Assembly: GCA_965372365.1 (NCBI GenBank)
Contig: CBDVCA010000002.1
Coordinates: forward strand, 936-64,935
Origin: an uncultured bacterium
GTDB lineage: Bacteria; Planctomycetota; Phycisphaerae; SM23-33; FEN-1343
Direction of reading: 5' to 3'
Length of the DNA: 64,000 bases
Of the stretch, positions 5,829-49,484 are shown piece by piece. Positions within the stretch are counted from its first letter, which is position 1, and each line of letters opens with the position of its first letter. The position numbers and the translations under genes were made by a program. A model generated the notes under the pieces. It did not search any database, was not told the origin of the DNA, and saw only the letters and a list, made by a program, of their open reading frames with translations.

Positions 5829-8800
5829 TCAGGGCATTGGAATATTCAGCCCCGTACCGCTCAGTGCGTCGAAGCTGTCGCCTGTCCACGCCGATGGGTA
5901 GCGGCGAGTCCAAGACTGCAGTTTCGGTTGATGCAATCGTCGAACGCGTCTGCGGTTCTCCAGTATGCTCGGGCGACGGTTGGCGGCTTGGACGGGGCCG
6001 ACGTCGGTTGTCTGGGCCTGTTCGGCGGCCAGCAGATCAACCGAATCGCCCAGAACCTTGGCCGGAGGAGCCATCATGGTCCCGAAGTTCTGTTTGAGAA
6101 GGACGAAGTCGTCAAGGTCAACTTTCTGATTGCCGTCGAAATCGCCTTGAGCCCAATTGGAGCCGGTCCCGAAGTTCCGCTTCAAGATGACGAAATCGTC
6201 CAAGTCGACGTCGCCGTCGGTATCGGCATCACCGGCCGTGGCCACGAGGATCTGCGCGGCGTAGTCGTCGCCACCGACGCCGTCGCCGTCGCCATCGAGC
6301 AGGTTCCCGGTCTCATCGGAGACACCCGCGGCGGCGAGGGTGATCGTGTAGTATCCGGCCTGCACGCCAAGGGACGACAGGTCCCACGTTGCGGTGTTGT
6401 TCTGACTGTCGTAGGTCAGGTCGCCCGGCGTCAAGCCCGACAGGTCCACCGGGGTGGAGGTGGTGTCGTTGTGGATCGACAGGTCGCCCACGTCGATCGA
6501 GGCCGAGACGTCCTCGTCGAAGGTGAAGGCCATGCTGGTCAACTCGCCCGGTCGGTCGAGCCCGCCGTTGCGGATCGTGTCGACCACCGTCGGCGACTGC
6601 TGGTCGCTCGGATCGACCATCACATCGAGCGACGCGGCTGCGGTTTCGACTGCATCCTCGGGCACGAAGACCTGCACCGTGTAGACGCCCGGCTCGGCCC
6701 ACGTGTGCGTGACCTGCACCTCGGCCAATACTCTCGGCCCAGGCCCGAACGGCCGGCCGTAATGGACGATCACCGAGCCGGGGGTGTCGAGCCCGTCAGC
6801 GGGGAGCCCGACGGCGACGTCATCGATCCCGTCGCCGTTGGCGTCGGCGCCGCCGGCGAGGAGATGGGTGGAGATAAGCGGCGTCCGCGTCAACTGGGCG
6901 GGGCCCATCTGGAACGGCGTGGTGTCCAGGCCGTCGCCGGAGCCAAGGTAGAGCAGCGTGATGCTGTCGCCGCCGGGCTCGTTGGCCGCGACGAGCAGGT
7001 CACCGAGGCCATCGGCGTTGAAATCTCCAGCCGAGGCCACCTGTCGGCCGAAGTAATTCGCGCCTTCGGGGCCGGTCAGCAGCAGGGGCTGCGGGTCCAG
7101 GCCGCCGGCGGAGCCGAAGTACACAAGAACCGTTCCGTCGCCAGGGGCGCCCAGTGCGACGTCGTCAAGCCCGTCGCCGTTGAGGTCGCCGAGGCCGGCG
7201 ACGCTCGCTCCGAGCATGACCGAGTCGGCCGAGCCCTCGAACATCTCGATCGGCCCGGTCAGCGAAGTGTTCGTTCCGGCGAACAGGCGGACAACGCCTG
7301 TGTGGACGCCGTCGCCGGCAGCCTCCAGCGGGGCTCCGATCAACACATCGTCGCGGCCGTCGCCGTCGACGTCGCCGGCGGCGCCGAGAGCGTACCCGAG
7401 GGCGCCGTTGGCTTGGTCGCCGGTGTAGGTCCAGGCCGGTTCGGTTGACAGGCCTGTGGCGCTACCGAGGAACAACTGAACGCGTCCGGCGCCGGCGATC
7501 TCGATGAGCGTATCGCCGACGATGATCTCGGTGGCGGCGTTCGGGTCCGAGACAAGTACGTCGTCGAACCCGTCGTTGTTGACGTCGCCGGCTCCTGCGA
7601 CCACCGTGGCGTTTTCGGCGTAGATTCCGTCGGTCAGCATCGGCTGGCCCAACGGCGAGCCGAACAGTATGAACACTTGGCCCTGTACCTGGACTTCGGT
7701 CATGCCCACTGTGCCGTCGGGGTAGACGATCGGTACGAGCCGGTAGAGGCGATGGCCGGGCGCCGAGATGGCGACGTCGCCGATTCCGTCGTTATTGACG
7801 TCGCCGGCCGCGGCCACCATTCGCCCGAACTGGGCGTTGTCCTGTGAGCCGTAGAAGGTGAAGGGCTCCGAGACGAATCCTTCGGTGGAACCGGCGTAGA
7901 TCTGCACTCGGCCGGCGTTGATGGAGTCTCCGTCGTCGTATCCGCCTTCGCCCACGATGAGGTCGGCCAGACCGTCGCCGGTGACGTCGACCAAGGCGAC
8001 CGACTGTCCGAATCGGCTGCCGATCCGGTCGGTAGTGATCATGTCCGACGGCCCCGCGAGCATCTCGGTCGGCGCCGGCAGGATCGGGACGCTGAGCGTT
8101 TCGGACGCTCCGTCTCCGTAGTTCACGGTTACGTCCAGGTCGCCGTCAGGATCGAATCGGCCGGTCGTGTCGGTGATGGTGATCGTGAACGTGACCTCCT
8201 CGCCATCGACGATGACTTCGCTGTCCGGCAGGATCTCGATATCCAACGTGTCGCCGGGGTTGATCAGGGCTACCGGCGATTGGATGTCGATACCGACCAA
8301 CTGGCCAACCACCACGTCGGTCAGCGTCAGGGCGCCGCCGGCTTGCAGCGACAGCATGCTCGAGTAGCGGTCGGTCAGCAGTTCCACGCTGCCGGCGATG
8401 ATGTCGCCGGGGGAGGTGACCAGGAGACTGCCGTCGGCCACAATCACGTTGGCCAACTCGACCGAGCCGACCGCGTCGATTTGCAGATCCCCGCGGCCGC
8501 GGATGTCGGCGTCGACGATGCCGACGTCGGTTCGCAGTACGACCCCGGTGTCGGAGGTTATGGTCAGCCGCTCGCCGCGAATCAACGCTTGGTCGCCGCC
8601 GAGGATGGTCTGGGCGGTCATACTGAGATTCAAACCTTCCAGGACGGTTCCGCCGTCGGCGTCGGAGGCGAAGCCGTTAAGCATCACGGCGTCGGTTGCG
8701 ATCAGTGTGGTGTTGCCGAACGTGTTATGGAGGGCGCCGTCGCCGACGAAGATGATGTTGCGTCCTTCGAGGGTCAGGTCGCTGTTGTACAGCCAGATGT

Positions 8801-11800
8801 TCGCCTCGATGATGATATCGTGCTCGGCGATGAGGTGCAGCGGCCCGTCGAAGAGCAGATCGTCGGCCGAGTCGATGACGATGCTCAGGCCGTCGGAGGT
8901 GAGCGTTTCGCCTCCGACGTTGGCGTCGGGCAGGTAGGCGGTCAGTCCGGCCGCCATGGTGAGGGTTCCGCCGATGACGGGGCCGTCGCCGGCTTCCATC
9001 GGAGCGATGCTTCCGACGTTCCTCGCCGCATCGAACAACGCGTCGCCGGTGGCGACGATGTCTCCGACCCTCACGTCGCCCAAGCCCGTCGCGACCAGCG
9101 TCAGGTCGCCGGTATCGACGCCGTCGGCGACGATCGTGCCGTCAGAGAAGACGGACAACTCGCCGCCGTGGACGTTTGTGGCGGTGACCGTGAAGGTGTC
9201 GACGCCTTCGGGGGTCACGTTATGCACGACCACACTGCCGGTGGCGTAGGTGTTGGCCATGAAGATTTCGGCCTGCGTGTAGAGCTCCGCTTCGCCGTCG
9301 GCGGCCACCCAGACCAGCGTGGCTTCCAGCAGGCTGCCCGGGGCGCCCATCACGGGGCCGGCGCCCGCCGAGAGCATGACCGTATCGGCTGAGACGTGGC
9401 CGCCGTCGATGATATAGAGCCCACCGTTGGCGGCGATCTCCACGACGCTGTGGCCGCTGATGCGACCGCCGATTTCGACGGCGTCGTAGCTCTCGATGTG
9501 TACGACGGGGGCGAACAGCCTGGCTTCGTCCAGGCCGGAGACGCCGCCGGTTGCCGCGATCATGTCGATTCGCATAGACGCCGAGATGGCGATGTCGGTC
9601 ATGCGAAGGTTGCCGGTGTCGAGTTGCTCGACCGGCAGCAGTCTGTCGCCGTTGTGGTAAACCTCGGTGAGCAGCGTGGGCGGCGTGACGTAGACTTCAT
9701 TCTCGTGCGACTTGGGATCGTCCAAAGCGATCTCGTGGGTCGGGACCTGATTGAAGATCGGCGTGAAGTCCAGGAACGTCACGAGAATGTCGTCACGTTC
9801 AACGACCTCGATCGCCAGGTCGGCGAGCGTTTGTCCGGGGTACAGTACGATGAGCCGGCCGCCGTCTTGGAGTTGGGCGGCGAGGTCGTCCAGGACGGTC
9901 TGGAAGCTGACGACGTGCTCGTCGTCTTCGGCGTCGCTGGTGAAGAACAGATCGGCTGACGCGAATTCCCGAGCGCTGTCGGCTTTGAGGAATCTCGCTC
10001 GGTAGTCGTCGACGGCGAACAGGTTGCTTTCGATCTCCACCTGTCGGGCCACGCCGGTGTCCTGTCGGATGTCGGTCACCGTCTGGGTCTCGACCTCGAC
10101 GAACGTGCGAACGGTGTAGGCGCCGTCGAAGACGTAGAACTCCGGCAGGGCGCCGGTATCCCATTGGTAGAGGGTTTCGAGGTCGTCGGTGGTGTCGCCC
10201 GGCGTGCCTTCGATGTCGTCGAGGCGCCGGTAGTAGTCCTGTCCGCCATCGGAGTACAGTGCGTGCTGGAGGATATAGAACAGGTCGTCGTCGATGGGCT
10301 TGGTTCCGTTGGCGTCGCGGAAGTAGGTTTGACCGGTTACCGAATGCGTGTAGAGGTAGTAGCCGGAGAACTCATCCTGGGCGACACGGTCGCCGGGATC
10401 TTCGGGCTCGTCGCCGTCCTTCAAGTCGAGGTCCAGTTCGACGTTTCCATTCACCAGCATGGCGTCGCCGGTCAGGCCGAGGGCCTCGATGGTGATGGTT
10501 GTGAGTCCGTCGCCGCCGAGCTGCGCCAATCGCAGATCGCTTTCCAACTGCGATTGCAGGACAAGCATGCCTTCCAAGTCGGTCTGGAGTTGTCCCAGGC
10601 GGTCGATGTCGAGCCACACGCCGTCACGATACCCGGCGGCTGTGTACTGGAGGTCGATGCCGTACTGCAGCGATTGCAGTTCGTGGGCCGCGACGAGATA
10701 GTCGACCTGGAGTTGCTGGAGGGTGACCTCGGCGCCGGCCAAGGCGGTGCGCTGGGTTCCCTTGGTCAGCAGGATGTCAGACAAGTTGCCCTGTATCGTG
10801 GTCTCTTGGGTGTCGAGCCCGGCCAGGACGCTGAGGTGGCCGGTGATATCGATGTTGTAGCCATCGGCGTCGTTCTGCAGGTAGCCCAATTGGAACGTGA
10901 AGTCGCCCTCTTGCTGGACCAGTCCGGGCTCGTCGGCCACGGCGCCTTGGAATTGGGCGTTCAGGTGGGTCCGTTGCGTTTGCAGGGGGGCCAGGTTGGT
11001 CTGGATATCGCCCAGATCGTACGGGAGCTCGCCGTGCGCCAGATCGATTTGTCCGACGACATCCCATCGCTCGGTGGACAGGTTCTGTTGCTGCATGTAG
11101 AGGTCGTTCTGCTGTACAGACAGTTGGCCGATCTCGTCCTCGAACATGCCGGTGGCGTCATTGATGAACCCCTCGATGTCCATTCGCTCGGTACTCAGGC
11201 CGCTCAATTGGACGCCGAGTGCGTCGCTTTGGGCCTGTAGCAGCGAGAGTTCGCCGCCCATGAGTTGCTGGGCCGAGGATAGTTCGGTTTCCAGGCTTTC
11301 GGTGGTCGCCGAGACCTGCGAGTACTGGGTCTGCAGCGGGGCCAACAGGTTGCTCAGACGCGTTTCCTCGCCGCCCAGCAATCCGTCGACGGTGTCGACG
11401 ATGCCCGTCACGGTGTTCCGGTCGGCGATGAAGCCGGCCTCGATCGACTGCAGATGCTGGAGGGAGTGGTCGTCGTATCCGATCATGTAGAGTTCGTACT
11501 CGATCACCGACGCCTGATCCTCCAGTTGCGTCTCGTCGGCGTACAGGCCCTGCAGGGTCACGTTGAGATCGTCGCGTTGGGTCATCAAGTTGAGGATGTA
11601 GTTGCGTTCGGTGGTCAGTGAACCCACTTGGCCCTGCCAGTAGCTTCGGTCAGACAACAAGTCGTTTCGCATCTCATCAAGGGCGTAGCGGTCCGTCGGC
11701 AGTTTCGGGTCGTATGCTCCGTCGCCGCCCTTATTCTTCATGAGCTGGTACGCCTGCGACGTTTCCCCGCTCTTGTCCAACTGCGTGAGCAAGACGTCCC

Positions 11801-47126: not shown

Positions 47127-47877
47127 GGCAAGCTCGACAAAACGAATGCGGCGACCCGGAGGGGGCTGATGTTGCCCCGGTAAGAGGTGACCGTAACGAA
47201 GTGACGAACCTGCCTTGACCTACAGGTTACGGGACCCCCCGAAAGAGCGCGACGTCAAACCGTCGCATGCCCCATCGAATACAGGAACCCGCCGCGTCTT
47301 GCTCCAAGCAAGCCGGCGCTGCTCCCGAATGGATCCCGATCGCATGGCATATCTTACGCGCATTTGGCGAAATCCAGTGCTGCATTCCTGGGCACATTGG
47401 GGCTCTTTGGTGTAAGTCCAGAGGAGATATACATGTAGGAGGGGGCGGAAAACGCCGTTCGCCTCGCCGTTCGCTATCGGAGCGGTCTCAGTGTCTCTGT
47501 TGAGGATCTTATCCGTATAAATGACACTGGTTTACCGGACTTTGAGCCGTGACGATGTGAGGACCCGATTCACAGATGAAGTATGCTTCGAATCGTCGAT
47601 TCCAGCCCCTTGGCGATCCGCATGAAGCCTTCGGCCCTATCACCCTCCCCCTCAAAACTCCGAATTCTCCTAGTTTGGGTTCGTTTGATTTCTTGCCTGC
47701 CAGTCCGTCTCTCCTTTCTACTCTCTCCGTTCTCCTCTCTATGCCGCCCTGCGGCATCCCCCCCCTCACTCTAATGGCGCGTTTCAGAGGTATCCCCCGT
47801 TCAGCCGGCCGGATTAGCTTGACGAGCGGGTGGGTCGCCGTAGGTTGTCGGCCGTATCGGGGTCGTGAATAGGGCAA

Positions 47878-48277
47878 GGCGCTTGTCGTTAGCCCCGTAG
47901 GGGCGTTTGGTAGTAGCCTCGGGCGCGAGCCCGTGGAATGGAGATACCCAACCGGGGGACGAGCCCCTGTAGGGGGCGATTGAAAGGGGCGCACATAGTC
48001 GAATCTCGGGCGGGCGATTGTCATCGGCGGCGACGTCGTTGATTACAGCCGACGCCAGACGGACCGTCATCGGAAGGTGACGTGTGAGGAGCCGGGTTCA
48101 ATCGCCCCCTGCGGGGGCTCTTTCCTTGTGGGCGCGCCGATTCCACGGGCTCGCGCCCGAGGCTACTACCAAACGCCCCTACGGGGCTAACGACAAACGC
48201 CTTGTGGGCGCGCCGATTCCACGGGCTCGCGCCCGAGGCTACTACCAAACGCCCCTACGGGGCTAACGACAAACGCC
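47878..48277. repeat. Long imperfect inverted repeat (arms ~107 nt, ~95% identical, spacer ~112 nt) with one arm terminus tandemly duplicated; MITE-like or structured-RNA element about 750 nt upstream of the giant-gene start
   Basis: The 62-nt core at 47878-47939 is the reverse complement (1 mismatch) of 48140-48201. That core, with a 15-nt leader, is repeated in tandem (77-nt units at 48125-48201 and 48202-48277). A second inner inverted pair lies at 47961-47984 (gagcccctgtagggggcgattgaa) and 48097-48120 (ttcaatcgccccctgcgggggctc), with 2 mismatches. Confidence 0.8.
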
Positions 48278-48403
48278 CCATGCGTCGGCGCCGGGGACTC
48301 GCGGCAGTTCCGAGCAAACGTGACTCGAAAGGCGAATTAAGTATGGTGTCCCCGGAACCAGCCGGAACCAGCGATCGGACTCAATTCCAAGCACGCTCTT
48401 GCA

Positions 48404-48883
48404 TCATGGCCGCGAATCGAGCAGGGTCGTTACGGCGGCGGGCAGGTCGGCATAGAAGTAAGCGACTCGGTGCTGTTGGTGGAGCTGGCGAATTCGCTCG
48501 TGATAGCGGCTGTAGAGATCGTGCTCGAATTCGTCGCCGGCGCTCTCGCATGAGAACACGCGGCAGCCCAGCGCGCGACGTTCGCGAGCAGTGCATTGCG
48601 ACTCTTGTTGGTAGGGGCAGCGATCGGCGGCCGCGGCGGCGGGGTTGACGGGGGTCGCGTGGATGAGCAGGGCCAGTTCGATCGTTGAGACGTAGAGCCG
48701 ATGCCCGAAGGCGGCGAAGTCGCAGCAGCGGCCGCAGGCGGTGCAGGTCTGGCCGGAGCCGGCGAGTTCGGCGTCGACGTCGCGGTACAGATCGGCCATC
48801 GCGGCCATCAGCGCGGGAATCGCCTGTGCTTGCCGAACGGCCGCGACCAAGTCGGGGTCAGGTTCGGTTCTTTTCATCTTCAA
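48404..48883 (-). CDS. YkgJ-family cysteine-cluster protein (CxxCxxCC putative Zn/Fe-chelating domain), copy 1
   Basis: CTACGRCCDFAAFGHRLYVS has the CxxCxxCC signature, with additional Cys at RCPYQQESQC and CRVFSC. 159 aa. Overlaps the upstream paralog by about 20 nt. Confidence 0.65.
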   Translation of the reverse strand: MKMKRTEPDPDLVAAVRQAQAIPALMAAMADLYRDVDAELAGSGQTCTACGRCCDFAAFGHRLYVSTIELALLIHATPVNPAAAAADRCPYQQESQCTARERRALGCRVFSCESAGDEFEHDLYSRYHERIRQLHQQHRVAYFYADLPAAVTTLLDSRP

Positions 48884-49313
48884 TATAGCCCAAGTCCCGC
48901 AGTTGCCCCCGATTCACGCCCGGGCATCGCACCCCGGCCATCGACCAGTCGGCGGGCCTGCGGAGGTTGCTCGGCCAGAACGGCCACGTTTGGCATTGCG
49001 ACGGTCGCACGGTGTAGATGGTGCAGTGTTTGACGCCGTCGCCGTCGGCTTCAAGGAACACGCAGTCCATGTTGGCTGCTTCGATCAGGCTTGTTCGCCG
49101 ACCCACCTTGCGCGTGTACGTGGCGCTGAACGCCTCGGTCGTCATCCCCAAATGCTCGGCCGCGGCGGCGATCTCTTCGGAGGTGATCCAGACGTACCCT
49201 TCTTCAGGGCCGCTGCAGCAGTGGCCGCATTCCTGGCACTCGAAAGCGAGACCATCGGCGTACCAGGGTCTATTGGGTTTTAGAGCATTTTGCATAATAC
49301 CTGTCGCCTTCAT
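48858..49313 (-). CDS. YkgJ-family cysteine-cluster protein (CxxCxxCC), copy 2
   Basis: CQECGHCCSGPEEGYVWI has the CxxCxxCC signature, plus C-x-F-L, HCTIY and RCPGV cysteines. The ORF extends to 49361. Starts at 49313 (MKATG) or 49295 (MQNALK) are more plausible, because the N-terminal codons there are AT-rich, as expected for a real start. Confidence 0.6.
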   Translation of the reverse strand: MKATGIMQNALKPNRPWYADGLAFECQECGHCCSGPEEGYVWITSEEIAAAAEHLGMTTEAFSATYTRKVGRRTSLIEAANMDCVFLEADGDGVKHCTIYTVRPSQCQTWPFWPSNLRRPADWSMAGVRCPGVNRGQLRDLGYIEDEKNRT

Positions 49314-49484
49314 GCTGGTTGCGGCATCGGTTGGCGGCGTCCGTTTCCATCGCCATAGCAACGGCTATGGCTGCTTCAACGTCCTTGCCAGCCTCGTCCT
49401 CACCGACGCCTGAACACGACATCTATTATGCAAAGTGCTCTAGCCAGGCCATACGGTTCGTTCCTTACTGTGGAGCGAACCATT

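Follow-up and report, generated by a model that had tools for sequence, protein, structure and literature searches.

What is the long inverted repeat that lies at positions 47875–48277 of this stretch, between a giant open reading frame (ORF) and a gene for a YkgJ-like cysteine-cluster protein? The stretch, referred to hereafter as the window, comprises 64,000 nt of contig CBDVCA010000002.1 from an uncultured planctomycete of the Phycisphaerae, and an initial annotation of its sequence had offered a mobile element, a structured RNA or an operator array as candidates. We find that the locus is the relic of a repetitive extragenic palindrome (REP)/transposase system, an ordinary kind of object, and very probably a REPtron or REPIN-like element in decay, where a Y1 HUH (IS200/IS605-superfamily) transposase gene once lay within inverted arms made of hairpins. 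Each arm carries a unit resembling the Rfam motif Acido-Lenti-1 (RF01687), and the spacer between the arms retains a fragment of the gene that intact relatives carry at the same place. The parts of the element are as follows, with the hairpins of an arm lettered A, B and C, and R1 denoting our own covariance model of the unit.

47875–48277, no strand: the entire element, comprising both arms, the 112-nt spacer between them and one additional tandem unit
47875–47984, minus strand: left arm; on this strand hairpin A is followed by a variable linker and hairpin B, then by a CTAC linker, hairpin C and 16 nt of tail
47891–47936, minus strand: left-arm Acido-Lenti-1-type unit (RF01687 36.5 bits, E 1e-6; R1 56.2 bits)
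47917–47936 and 47892–47904: left-arm hairpins B and C, respectively, with GTAG at 47913–47916 of the plus strand forming the foot of hairpin B
47963–47977: left-arm hairpin A (GCCCC-loop-GGGGC, beside GCGATTG)
47999–48091, plus strand: putative Y1 HUH transposase gene remnant, one frame, 93 nt (SNLGRAIVIGG followed by DVVDYSRRQTDRHRKVTCEE)
48097–48204, plus strand: right arm; hairpin A 48104–48118, variable linker, hairpin B 48143–48162, CTAC 48163–48166, hairpin C 48175–48187, tail
48143–48188, plus strand: right-arm Acido-Lenti-1-type unit, first copy
48219–48264, plus strand: right-arm Acido-Lenti-1-type unit, second tandem copy
48124–48275, plus strand: two exact tandem copies, 48124–48199 and 48200–48275, of a 76-nt unit that spans linker, hairpins B and C, and tail

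Architecture of the inverted hairpin arms

The inverted repeat is not a product of chance, because three copies of its 24- and 32-nt cores are present where 0.00 would be expected and its predicted folds lie about 16 standard deviations below those of shuffled sequences (−163 kcal/mol as single-stranded DNA (ssDNA), z −15.9; −273 kcal/mol as minus-strand RNA, z −15.8); the long hairpin that the initial annotation anticipated is thus borne out by the folding predictions. A repeat search delimits complementary outer arms at 47875–47939 and 48140–48204 (65 nt, 98%), a complementary match of the left arm (47878–47939) to the second tandem unit (48216–48277; 62 nt, 98%) and an inner complementary pair at 47956–47984 and 48097–48125 (29 nt, 86%). 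The spacer length of ~112 nt first given was correct, and the arms, put at ~107 nt, measure ~110 nt; the accompanying figure of ~95% identity is too high for the whole arm, for which gapped global alignment gives 97 of 112 columns (86.6%), although the outer block does agree at 64 of 65 positions. Inward of this block, ~20 nt in the middle of the arms are unalignable and the inner block is ~86% identical.

The end of the right arm is duplicated exactly, as had been noticed, with a unit of 76 nt rather than 77. The 100% identity of the two units, taken with the 64/65 identity of the outer arms, points to a recent duplication or conversion, which may have been mediated by the enzyme or have arisen by replication slippage. 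The peptide shared by several spurious ORF calls (RFHGLAPEATTKRPYGANDKR) proves to be one DNA unit translated three times, and the supposedly symmetric cgtcatcgg pair of the spacer reduces to a direct 8-mer (GTCATCGG, at 48020 and 48066) at chance level. We also considered, and rejected, a CRISPR-like reading of the 46-nt motif with its ~28-nt spacing, since the "spacers" were copied together with the repeats and show 100% identity within the window. A 20-mer seemingly shared in the right flank (48331–48357) did not stand up as a repeat, and when the 112-nt spacer and the two outer flanks were compared by blastn with all of the related loci introduced below, the matches were of GC-rich low-complexity sequence only.

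Each of the three units in the window aligns with the full RF01687 covariance model (positions 1–46) at 36.5 bits (E 1e-6 to 3e-6), 0.5 bit short of the gathering cut-off of 37 bits owing to an A.A mismatch in helix 1; an Rfam scan of the window at the gathering threshold returned no match of any family. The architecture of the motif is present throughout, with an 8-bp hairpin (B), a 12-nt linker beginning GGCUA and a 5-bp hairpin (C) ending CU, such that Acido-Lenti-1 corresponds to hairpins B and C of the arm. Model R1, trained on 40 Rfam seeds and 22 relatives (with one window unit in the training set), recovers the three known units only, at 56.2 bits, the next best score in the window being 10.4 bits. 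The likeness extends to genomic behaviour: the 89 RF01687 seeds stem for the most part from two genomes with multiple copies, frequently arranged as tandem arrays of 69–200 nt period (e.g., 74 nt), and the seed flanks contain an extra A-type hairpin 26–30 nt upstream, just as the units of the window are repeated at 76 nt and have hairpin A 24–25 nt upstream.

When read on the other strand than the Rfam model, hairpin B has the form of a REP, an imperfect palindrome with a 5′ GT[AG]G foot. The plus strand at 47913–47936 reads GTAG-CCTCGGGC-GCGA-GCCCGTGG, and its mirror image stands at both 48143–48166 and 48219–48242.

A Y1 HUH transposase gene between the arms

To place the arms within a wider family, we assembled a set of 124 loci (designated by L numbers). 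A 21-mer from the unit identified four contigs among the species-representative (GTDB) genomes, one from a Verrucomicrobiota metagenome-assembled genome (MAG; L001) and three from a single unclassified MAG; a 23-nt hairpin-B pattern identified at least 120 metagenome contigs, and 120 among the matches listed complete the set. The arm that recurs in these relatives consists of hairpin A, ~25 variable nt, hairpin B, CTAC with a short linker, and hairpin C. Hairpin A is typically CAATCGCCCC-loop-GGGGCTC, hairpin C is of the same type, and hairpin B is CCACGGGC-NNNN-GCCCGAGG, an 8-bp palindrome with a conserved A.A mismatch. The covariance model counts 266 arm copies in the 124 loci and a sequence-only nhmmer model 158, for which reason the latter was kept out of the statistics. 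A perfect stem of at least 5 bp, taken as hairpin A, is present within the 62 nt upstream of 191 of 261 arms (73%, against 31% of random 62-mers), and in 135 of 172 copies hairpin B is followed by GGCTAC, so that its foot reads GTAG on the opposite strand. The hairpins covary: across an alignment of 136 family hits, 90.9% of the cells are base-paired, and both sides have changed in 11 of the 13 pairs, values reached by 0 of 500 shuffles (slid controls pair at 29–46%).

The third pair of hairpin B (columns 3/25 of alignment A3) is a non-pair in 98 of 132 distinct sequences and A.A in the subfamily of the window, whereas the Rfam seeds mostly pair here; this conserved mismatch may be a determinant of specificity.

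The copies are organized chiefly as inverted doublets. Among the 122 adjacent pairs separated by no more than 1500 nt in the 124 loci, 76 have the (−,+) orientation found in the window, with the A hairpins facing one another, 18 are (+,−), 17 (+,+) and 11 (−,−). Distances between hairpin-B starts of the (−,+) pairs fall into groups of 93–136 nt (52 pairs), 147–274 nt (14 pairs, the range to which the 207 nt of the window belongs) and 550–656 nt (seven pairs), with the remaining three at 318, 352 and 1385 nt. Direct tandem periods of the family cluster at 69–77 nt, and the tandem-duplicated arm end of the window (76 nt) is therefore ordinary family behavior rather than a local peculiarity. Related contigs, which were chosen by the motif, carry up to 6–8 dispersed copies.

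Two further arrangements were seen. Direct tandem arrays of 3–5 units with periods of 66–75 nt (L060 10831–11175, L125 1398–1573, L087 2160–2496) resemble the arrays of the Lentisphaera seed genome, and in L090 (322–413) two convergent (+,−) arms share one long palindrome (CGCCCTACGGGCTCCGGAGCCCGTAGGGCG) instead of having separate C hairpins, an organization that can be likened to the "double foot" REPs produced by central deletion.

Several arms adjoin an ORF beginning MGHTFS..., and translation together with tblastn locates the corresponding 150-aa protein in 10 of the 124 loci. Its motifs (...HVIFSTK...DHVHLL...WQSGF..FSVS...YI..Q..HH...YDPEHYLD) are those of a Y1 HUH transposase; the four proteins tested match Pfam PF01797 (Y1_Tnp) with E values of 1e-23 to 1e-27, the NCBIfam IS200/IS605 model is passed (60–78 bits, cut-off 55), and the closest solved structures are those of ISDra2 TnpA (2XM3, 2FYX). 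Nine of the genes are complete and have the layout C′-B′-A′, ~10 nt, ATG...stop, ~5 nt, A-B-C, the motif lying upstream in 9/9 and downstream in 8/9 of these motif-selected loci (L082 is without a recognizable downstream arm); in L018, which is cut by the contig end, the downstream arm alone is visible. All seven of the (−,+) pairs 550–656 nt apart enclose an intact Y1 gene, in either orientation, and extra tandem units stand on one side of the gene in L051, L082, L091 and L107.

Loci chosen without reference to the motif gave the same picture. A protein search yielded 2158 matches at E ≤1e-10 (named "REP element-mobilizing transposase RayT" by JGI and "IS200/IS605 family transposase [Planctomycetes bacterium]" by NCBI), and in the four independent contigs examined the gene has a minus-strand motif just upstream in 4/4 cases and a plus-strand motif just downstream in 3/4; one of these contigs contains a three-copy tandem array of 66-nt period. 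Elsewhere in the 10-kb flanks of the four genes no motif copies were detected except for a weak match of 17.9 bits in L125. Across 120 homologues the protein has a median length of 150 aa and the motifs [DN]H[VLI]H, WQ (115/120) and Y...Q..HH (118/120); a conserved 30-aa C-terminal tail (...F.EE...FL..H...YDP.H) is also present in the clade.

The REPtron arrangement of a Y1 HUH gene between inverted repeats is thus found intact in relatives, and in the window only a remnant of the gene occupies the space between the arms. The translated spacer aligns with residues 41–51 (NEFGRAIKVGG) and 111–130 (EVIAYIERQTEHHRTVTFQE) of the L107 protein, the second block spanning the region of the catalytic tyrosine, where the tyrosine motif is kept in degraded form (Y...Q..RH, the first H of HH being replaced by R); the HUH motif and both termini are deleted. 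With the L107 protein as query, tblastn places the second block at E 0.018. Scored collinearly with BLOSUM62, the two segments together reach 88, a value that none of 1000 dinucleotide shuffles attains (mean 47.5, maximum 67), and the single-segment score of 55 exceeds the shuffle maximum of 50. When all 120 homologues are compared with the 64 kb, the nine best hits fall without exception at 48029–48091 (best P0058, 62% over 21 aa, E 5e-4), and 41 of the 206 hits with E ≤1 lie inside the 203-nt interior of the element. tblastn finds no intact Y1 gene in the window.

Comparable intermediates exist among the relatives: internally deleted gene remnants occur in L092 (twice), L103 and L116, those of L092 and L103 lying between arms 207–214 nt apart, much as in the window. 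At the other extreme, none of the 52 short doublets holds a domain with i-E <0.01. Since intact genes, internally deleted genes and minimal doublets all occur, a deletion series is compatible with the data, albeit unproven. In L092 the two remnants (468–778 and 1812–2120) belong to a 1342-nt direct repeat, each copy comprising arms around a gene whose N-terminal 20–30 aa are joined to its last residues (...YDPEHFLD in one copy), such that here a non-autonomous derivative has itself been duplicated. Besides a motif arm, the MAG contig L002 carries a second and distant Y1 homologue (5965–6363, minus strand; 29% identity to the L082 protein); more than one Y1 clade may be present in this MAG.

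These findings also bear on the proposal of a MITE-like non-autonomous mobile element (MITE stands for miniature inverted-repeat transposable element), which of the candidates first listed came closest: a transposase-less derivative is what we favor, while the classical form, a derivative of an insertion sequence of the DDE-transposase kind that is bounded by terminal inverted repeats (TIRs) and a target-site duplication, is scarcely credible here. The inverted arms, the small size and the lack of an intact ORF would suit it. However, no direct repeat flanks 47875 and 48277 (left flank ...gtgaataggg, right flank ccatgcgtcg...), so that the suggested search for target-site duplications at the element ends was negative; the arms are covarying hairpin arrays rather than conserved linear TIRs, and the gene between the arms of relatives encodes a Y1 HUH enzyme and not a DDE one.

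Relation to REPtrons, IS200/IS605 elements and the Acido-Lenti-1 motif

REPINs and REPtrons are defined by inverted doublets, by a Y1 gene lying within the repeats and by gene-less doublets that exceed the genes in number (PMC3116915, PMC2817692, PMC6006769). The present family shares with them (Nunvar 2010, PMC2817692; Bertels & Rainey 2011, PMC3116915; Messing 2012, PMC3479197) a GTAG-footed palindrome, a prevalence of inverted doublets able to form a long hairpin, the Y1 HUH gene between inverted repeats and a large excess of gene-less doublets over gene copies. It differs in that the arm is a composite of three hairpins and ~100 nt (a REP is a single one of 20–40 nt), in its frequent direct tandem arrays of 69–77 nt period, and in its enzyme, which is of class 1 (Y...Q..HH) where the REP-associated tyrosine transposases (RAYTs) are of class 2 (Y...NP); REPtrons moreover reach a high genomic copy number, whereas the window element is known from one locus in 64 kb. 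The system works like a REPtron but its enzyme is no canonical RAYT.

By its motifs the enzyme appears to carry the signature of TnpAY1 subclass 1.2, which Quentin, Siguier, Chandler & Fichant (2018, Table 1, PMC6006769) describe as ~148 aa long with HuH DH[IV]H, WQ, Y...Q..HH and a C-terminal domain that is conserved; the median of 150 aa, [DN]H[VLI]H, WQ, Y...Q..HH (118/120) and 30-aa C-terminal tail found here correspond, an assignment made on motifs. The same source lists this subclass as "REP: no", "generally without typical terminal secondary structure" and from Cyanobacteria and Bacteroidetes, whereas the genes described here are flanked by covarying hairpin arrays and come, where relatives are named, from Planctomycetota and, for L001, a Verrucomicrobiota MAG. 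The structured flanks are a departure from the published description of the subclass and no ground to exclude the protein from the clade; we found no later work on subclass 1.2 in the literature searched. Class 3 of the same scheme, from Planctomycetes and Acidobacteria, is a different protein (NHVH, W[TA], YV..EQ, CnGA foot; PMC6006769).

An insertion sequence (IS) of the IS200/IS605 type (subclass 1.1) was considered and set aside, although the NCBIfam IS200 model is passed. The transposase fold and chemistry, the subterminal recognition hairpins, the lack of target-site duplication and the existence of deletion derivatives are shared with these elements and their PATE-type derivatives. Their ends, however, are asymmetric: the left hairpin differs from the right one, both lie on one strand, and inverted arms are absent; their enzymes have W[TS] and Y[IV]ENQ in place of WQ and Y...Q..HH. 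The present arms, by contrast, are symmetric inverted copies with the gene between them in either orientation.

A structural parallel is provided by the TIRtrons (Di Nocera 2013, PMC3733652), in which a Y1 gene (TIRYT) lies within long inverted repeats, some of them composed of a degenerate GTAG REP and other stem-loops, with the repeats also dispersed as dimers and clusters; the "GTAG unit plus unrelated stem-loop" repeats of Pseudomonas are built on similar lines. The accessible TIRYT and RAYT proteins aligned there all carry Y...NP, unlike ours, the TIR motif GGGGWSAS is unlike the present arm, and the GTAG families of O. terrae and R. baltica encode other peptides. The arm sequence has no match in the accessible portion of the supplements.

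How such a locus might arise and move can be outlined by analogy. Y1 HUH enzymes such as those of IS608, ISDra2 and the E. coli TnpA-REP recognize hairpins in ssDNA, cut at a fixed site through a 5′-phosphotyrosine and rejoin the ends (PMC3479197, PMC6006769), and given the HUH and tyrosine motifs, the ISDra2 TnpA structures as closest relatives and the published TnpA-REP work, we think it rather likely that the present clade employs the same ssDNA chemistry. The enzyme would bind the arm hairpins in ssDNA, for example on the lagging-strand template, cut beside them via a 5′-phosphotyrosine intermediate and rejoin the ends, thereby spreading or rearranging units and doublets; the primary site is likely to be hairpin B with its GTAG, while A and C may serve as accessory or alternative ones. 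In intact relatives the 150-aa gene lies between two A hairpins, and in the window internal deletions would have left 93 nt of it and, as the locus stands now, a presumably non-autonomous, REPIN-like hairpin doublet with one extra 76-nt tandem unit. Being enzymatically dead, this copy could be moved or rearranged only in trans, and would be mobile only if an intact enzyme were encoded elsewhere in the genome.

Several points weigh against this assessment. The remnant is short, and a profile hidden Markov model of 10 Y1 proteins gives it only 5.3 bits (E 1.3); the spacer is the top hit among 1660 six-frame segments of the window and yet not significant by this measure alone, which is why we relied on the shuffle test and the 120-homologue tblastn. 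Most intermediate doublets (147–352 nt) have no recognizable gene remnant. The enzyme scores only 23.2 bits against NCBIfam NF047646 (REP_Tyr_transpos, cut-off 80) and has Y...Q..HH rather than the class-2 RAYT signature Y...NP. Copy densities are biased upward, the metagenome loci having been picked by an exact hairpin-B pattern, and model R1 finds a single locus in the 64 kb of the host that the window covers. Lastly, cleavage beside the arms and transposition are predicted activities of the enzyme.

Acido-Lenti-1 itself is typed "Gene; sRNA" in Rfam, was rated "probably RNA" on covariation and is annotated as a small RNA (sRNA) with no known function, "sometimes near group II introns" (Weinberg et al. 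2010, PMC2864571). The units could accordingly be genes for a trans-acting structured sRNA, the inverted layout making a long-hairpin sRNA or an antisense pair, and the initial annotation had likewise named a structured regulatory RNA and a long-hairpin sRNA. Beside the Rfam label, the strong covariation of both hairpins and the predicted minus-strand RNA fold (−273 kcal/mol) are in keeping with this; covariation, however, suits ssDNA hairpins equally well, a consensus scan finds no promoter-like site at the element, and the spacer is a pseudogene rather than a conserved RNA. RNA readings are further disfavored in that the motif occurs on both strands in inverted pairs (76 of the 122 adjacent pairs (−,+) and a further 18 (+,−)) and in tandem arrays with exact duplications, and that it consistently brackets a transposase gene; we regard an sRNA as very unlikely.

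There is, conversely, good in-silico evidence that this orphan Rfam "sRNA" is a DNA repeat belonging to a Y1 transposase clade reported to lack repeats. The broader claim, that Acido-Lenti-1 is no RNA gene but the DNA recognition repeat of a widespread REPtron type of subclass 1.2 enzymes, and one not yet described, we put forward as a tentative one. Beyond Weinberg 2010, the searchable literature, judged by title and subject, holds no record tying Acido-Lenti-1 to transposases or REPs, though one may exist elsewhere, and a search of the Weinberg seed file for the start of the Y1 gene (AUGGGNCAUAC and complements, covering three codon variants only) gave no match. Were the claim to hold, GTAG-cored three-hairpin arms would be bound and moved by a TnpAY1 clade described without REPs or a known role, in Planctomycetota, Verrucomicrobiota, Acidobacteriota, Lentisphaerota and many sediment metagenomes, with the window as one decayed example. 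The orphan motif would gain a concrete and testable function as an ssDNA recognition site for a transposase, structured repeats would be assigned to a Y1 HUH clade reported without any, and a REPtron type would be added outside Proteobacteria. Environmental contigs with an intact gene, an internally deleted gene or a minimal doublet bear, in addition, on the origin of REPINs from transposase loci. For the genome at hand the importance is slight: the repeat is a dead selfish element, and the ORF calls over it and its interpretation as a leader or regulator should therefore be dropped. Hairpin-arm elements of this kind are likely to cause assembly breaks and spurious ORFs in high-GC genomes of the Planctomycetes–Verrucomicrobia–Chlamydiae group.

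Flanking genes and read-through RNA

Both genes that border the element, and lie outside it, are on the minus strand:

48404–48883, minus strand: YkgJ-like cysteine-cluster gene, its stop 127 nt from the element
5829–47126, minus strand: giant ORF of 13,765 aa, its first possible start ~750 nt from the element

The "1.28-kb leader of the giant gene" of the initial annotation is correct in length, although the region is more properly the intergenic space that runs from the YkgJ-like stop (48404) to 47126, where the giant ORF can first start. A palindromic operator array controlling that gene had been suggested, and an operator array or structured leader acting in cis would fit the location of the element, which lies upstream of the giant ORF in a long intergenic region that any read-through from the YkgJ-like operon would cross. 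We consider this still less probable than an sRNA. The element is ~750 nt from the start that it would serve and its interior is a dead transposase gene; related arms adjoin genes as unrelated as those for kinases, DUF58 proteins, GTP cyclohydrolase and aldo-keto reductase. Three relatives with a syntenic YkgJ-like gene pair (the named relatives of this neighbor being Planctomycetota and Phycisphaerae MAGs) have other genes downstream, with neither the giant gene nor the element, and the element is hence no conserved feature of the neighborhood. We find no support for a regulator dedicated to the giant gene.

Since the giant ORF and the YkgJ-like gene share the minus strand, RNA reading through from the YkgJ-like operon would contain the whole hairpin, and whatever its origin, the element might serve today as a terminator, an insulator or an mRNA-stabilizing hairpin after that operon. 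Such roles have been summarized for some REPs and bacterial interspersed mosaic elements (PMC3733652, PMC2817692). The element starts 127 nt past the stop of the upstream gene, its predicted hairpin is very stable, terminator-like sites are present at 48104–48118 (plus) and 48211–48197 (minus), and related copies often directly follow stop codons (L001, L004). The number of such sites, on the other hand, is not above that of shuffles (2 found, 1.4 expected), and a role of this kind is compatible with decay of a REPtron rather than an alternative origin. As the present function of the element we judge it improbable, if less so than the sRNA and the operator or leader readings above; as a side effect on read-through RNA, termination or stabilization is plausible. 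Under the decayed-REPtron reading, any influence on the neighbors, be it by terminating or stabilizing the YkgJ-operon transcript or by insulating the giant gene, would be a by-product of the long hairpin.

Some features of the surroundings may be recorded in their own right. Two adjacent genes of the YkgJ/CxxCxxCC type (48404–49361, minus strand) overlap by a few codons, and only the upstream one matches Pfam PF03692; the pair is kept in Planctomycetota relatives (L132 9349–10483, L134 9565–10456). At 11561–11606 (plus strand) of L132, 1.1 kb downstream of the pair and between convergent genes, a weak two-hairpin match of 25.4 bits has GGCCAAAC in place of GGCTAC and may be a degenerate copy or an unrelated terminator. 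In three 1500-aa samples of the giant protein, Pfam matches are confined to the C-terminal one (FG-GAP repeats and a weak PKD), the N-terminal and middle samples having none. To the left of the element, the window is pyrimidine-rich on the plus strand at 47600–47800 (GC skew −0.41, AT skew −0.41) and contains 2.4 copies of a 14-nt unit (TCTCTCCGTTCTAC) at 47708–47740; on the sense strand of the giant gene the tract is purine-rich with GGAG-like runs, and it could be part of the real 5′ untranslated region of that gene.

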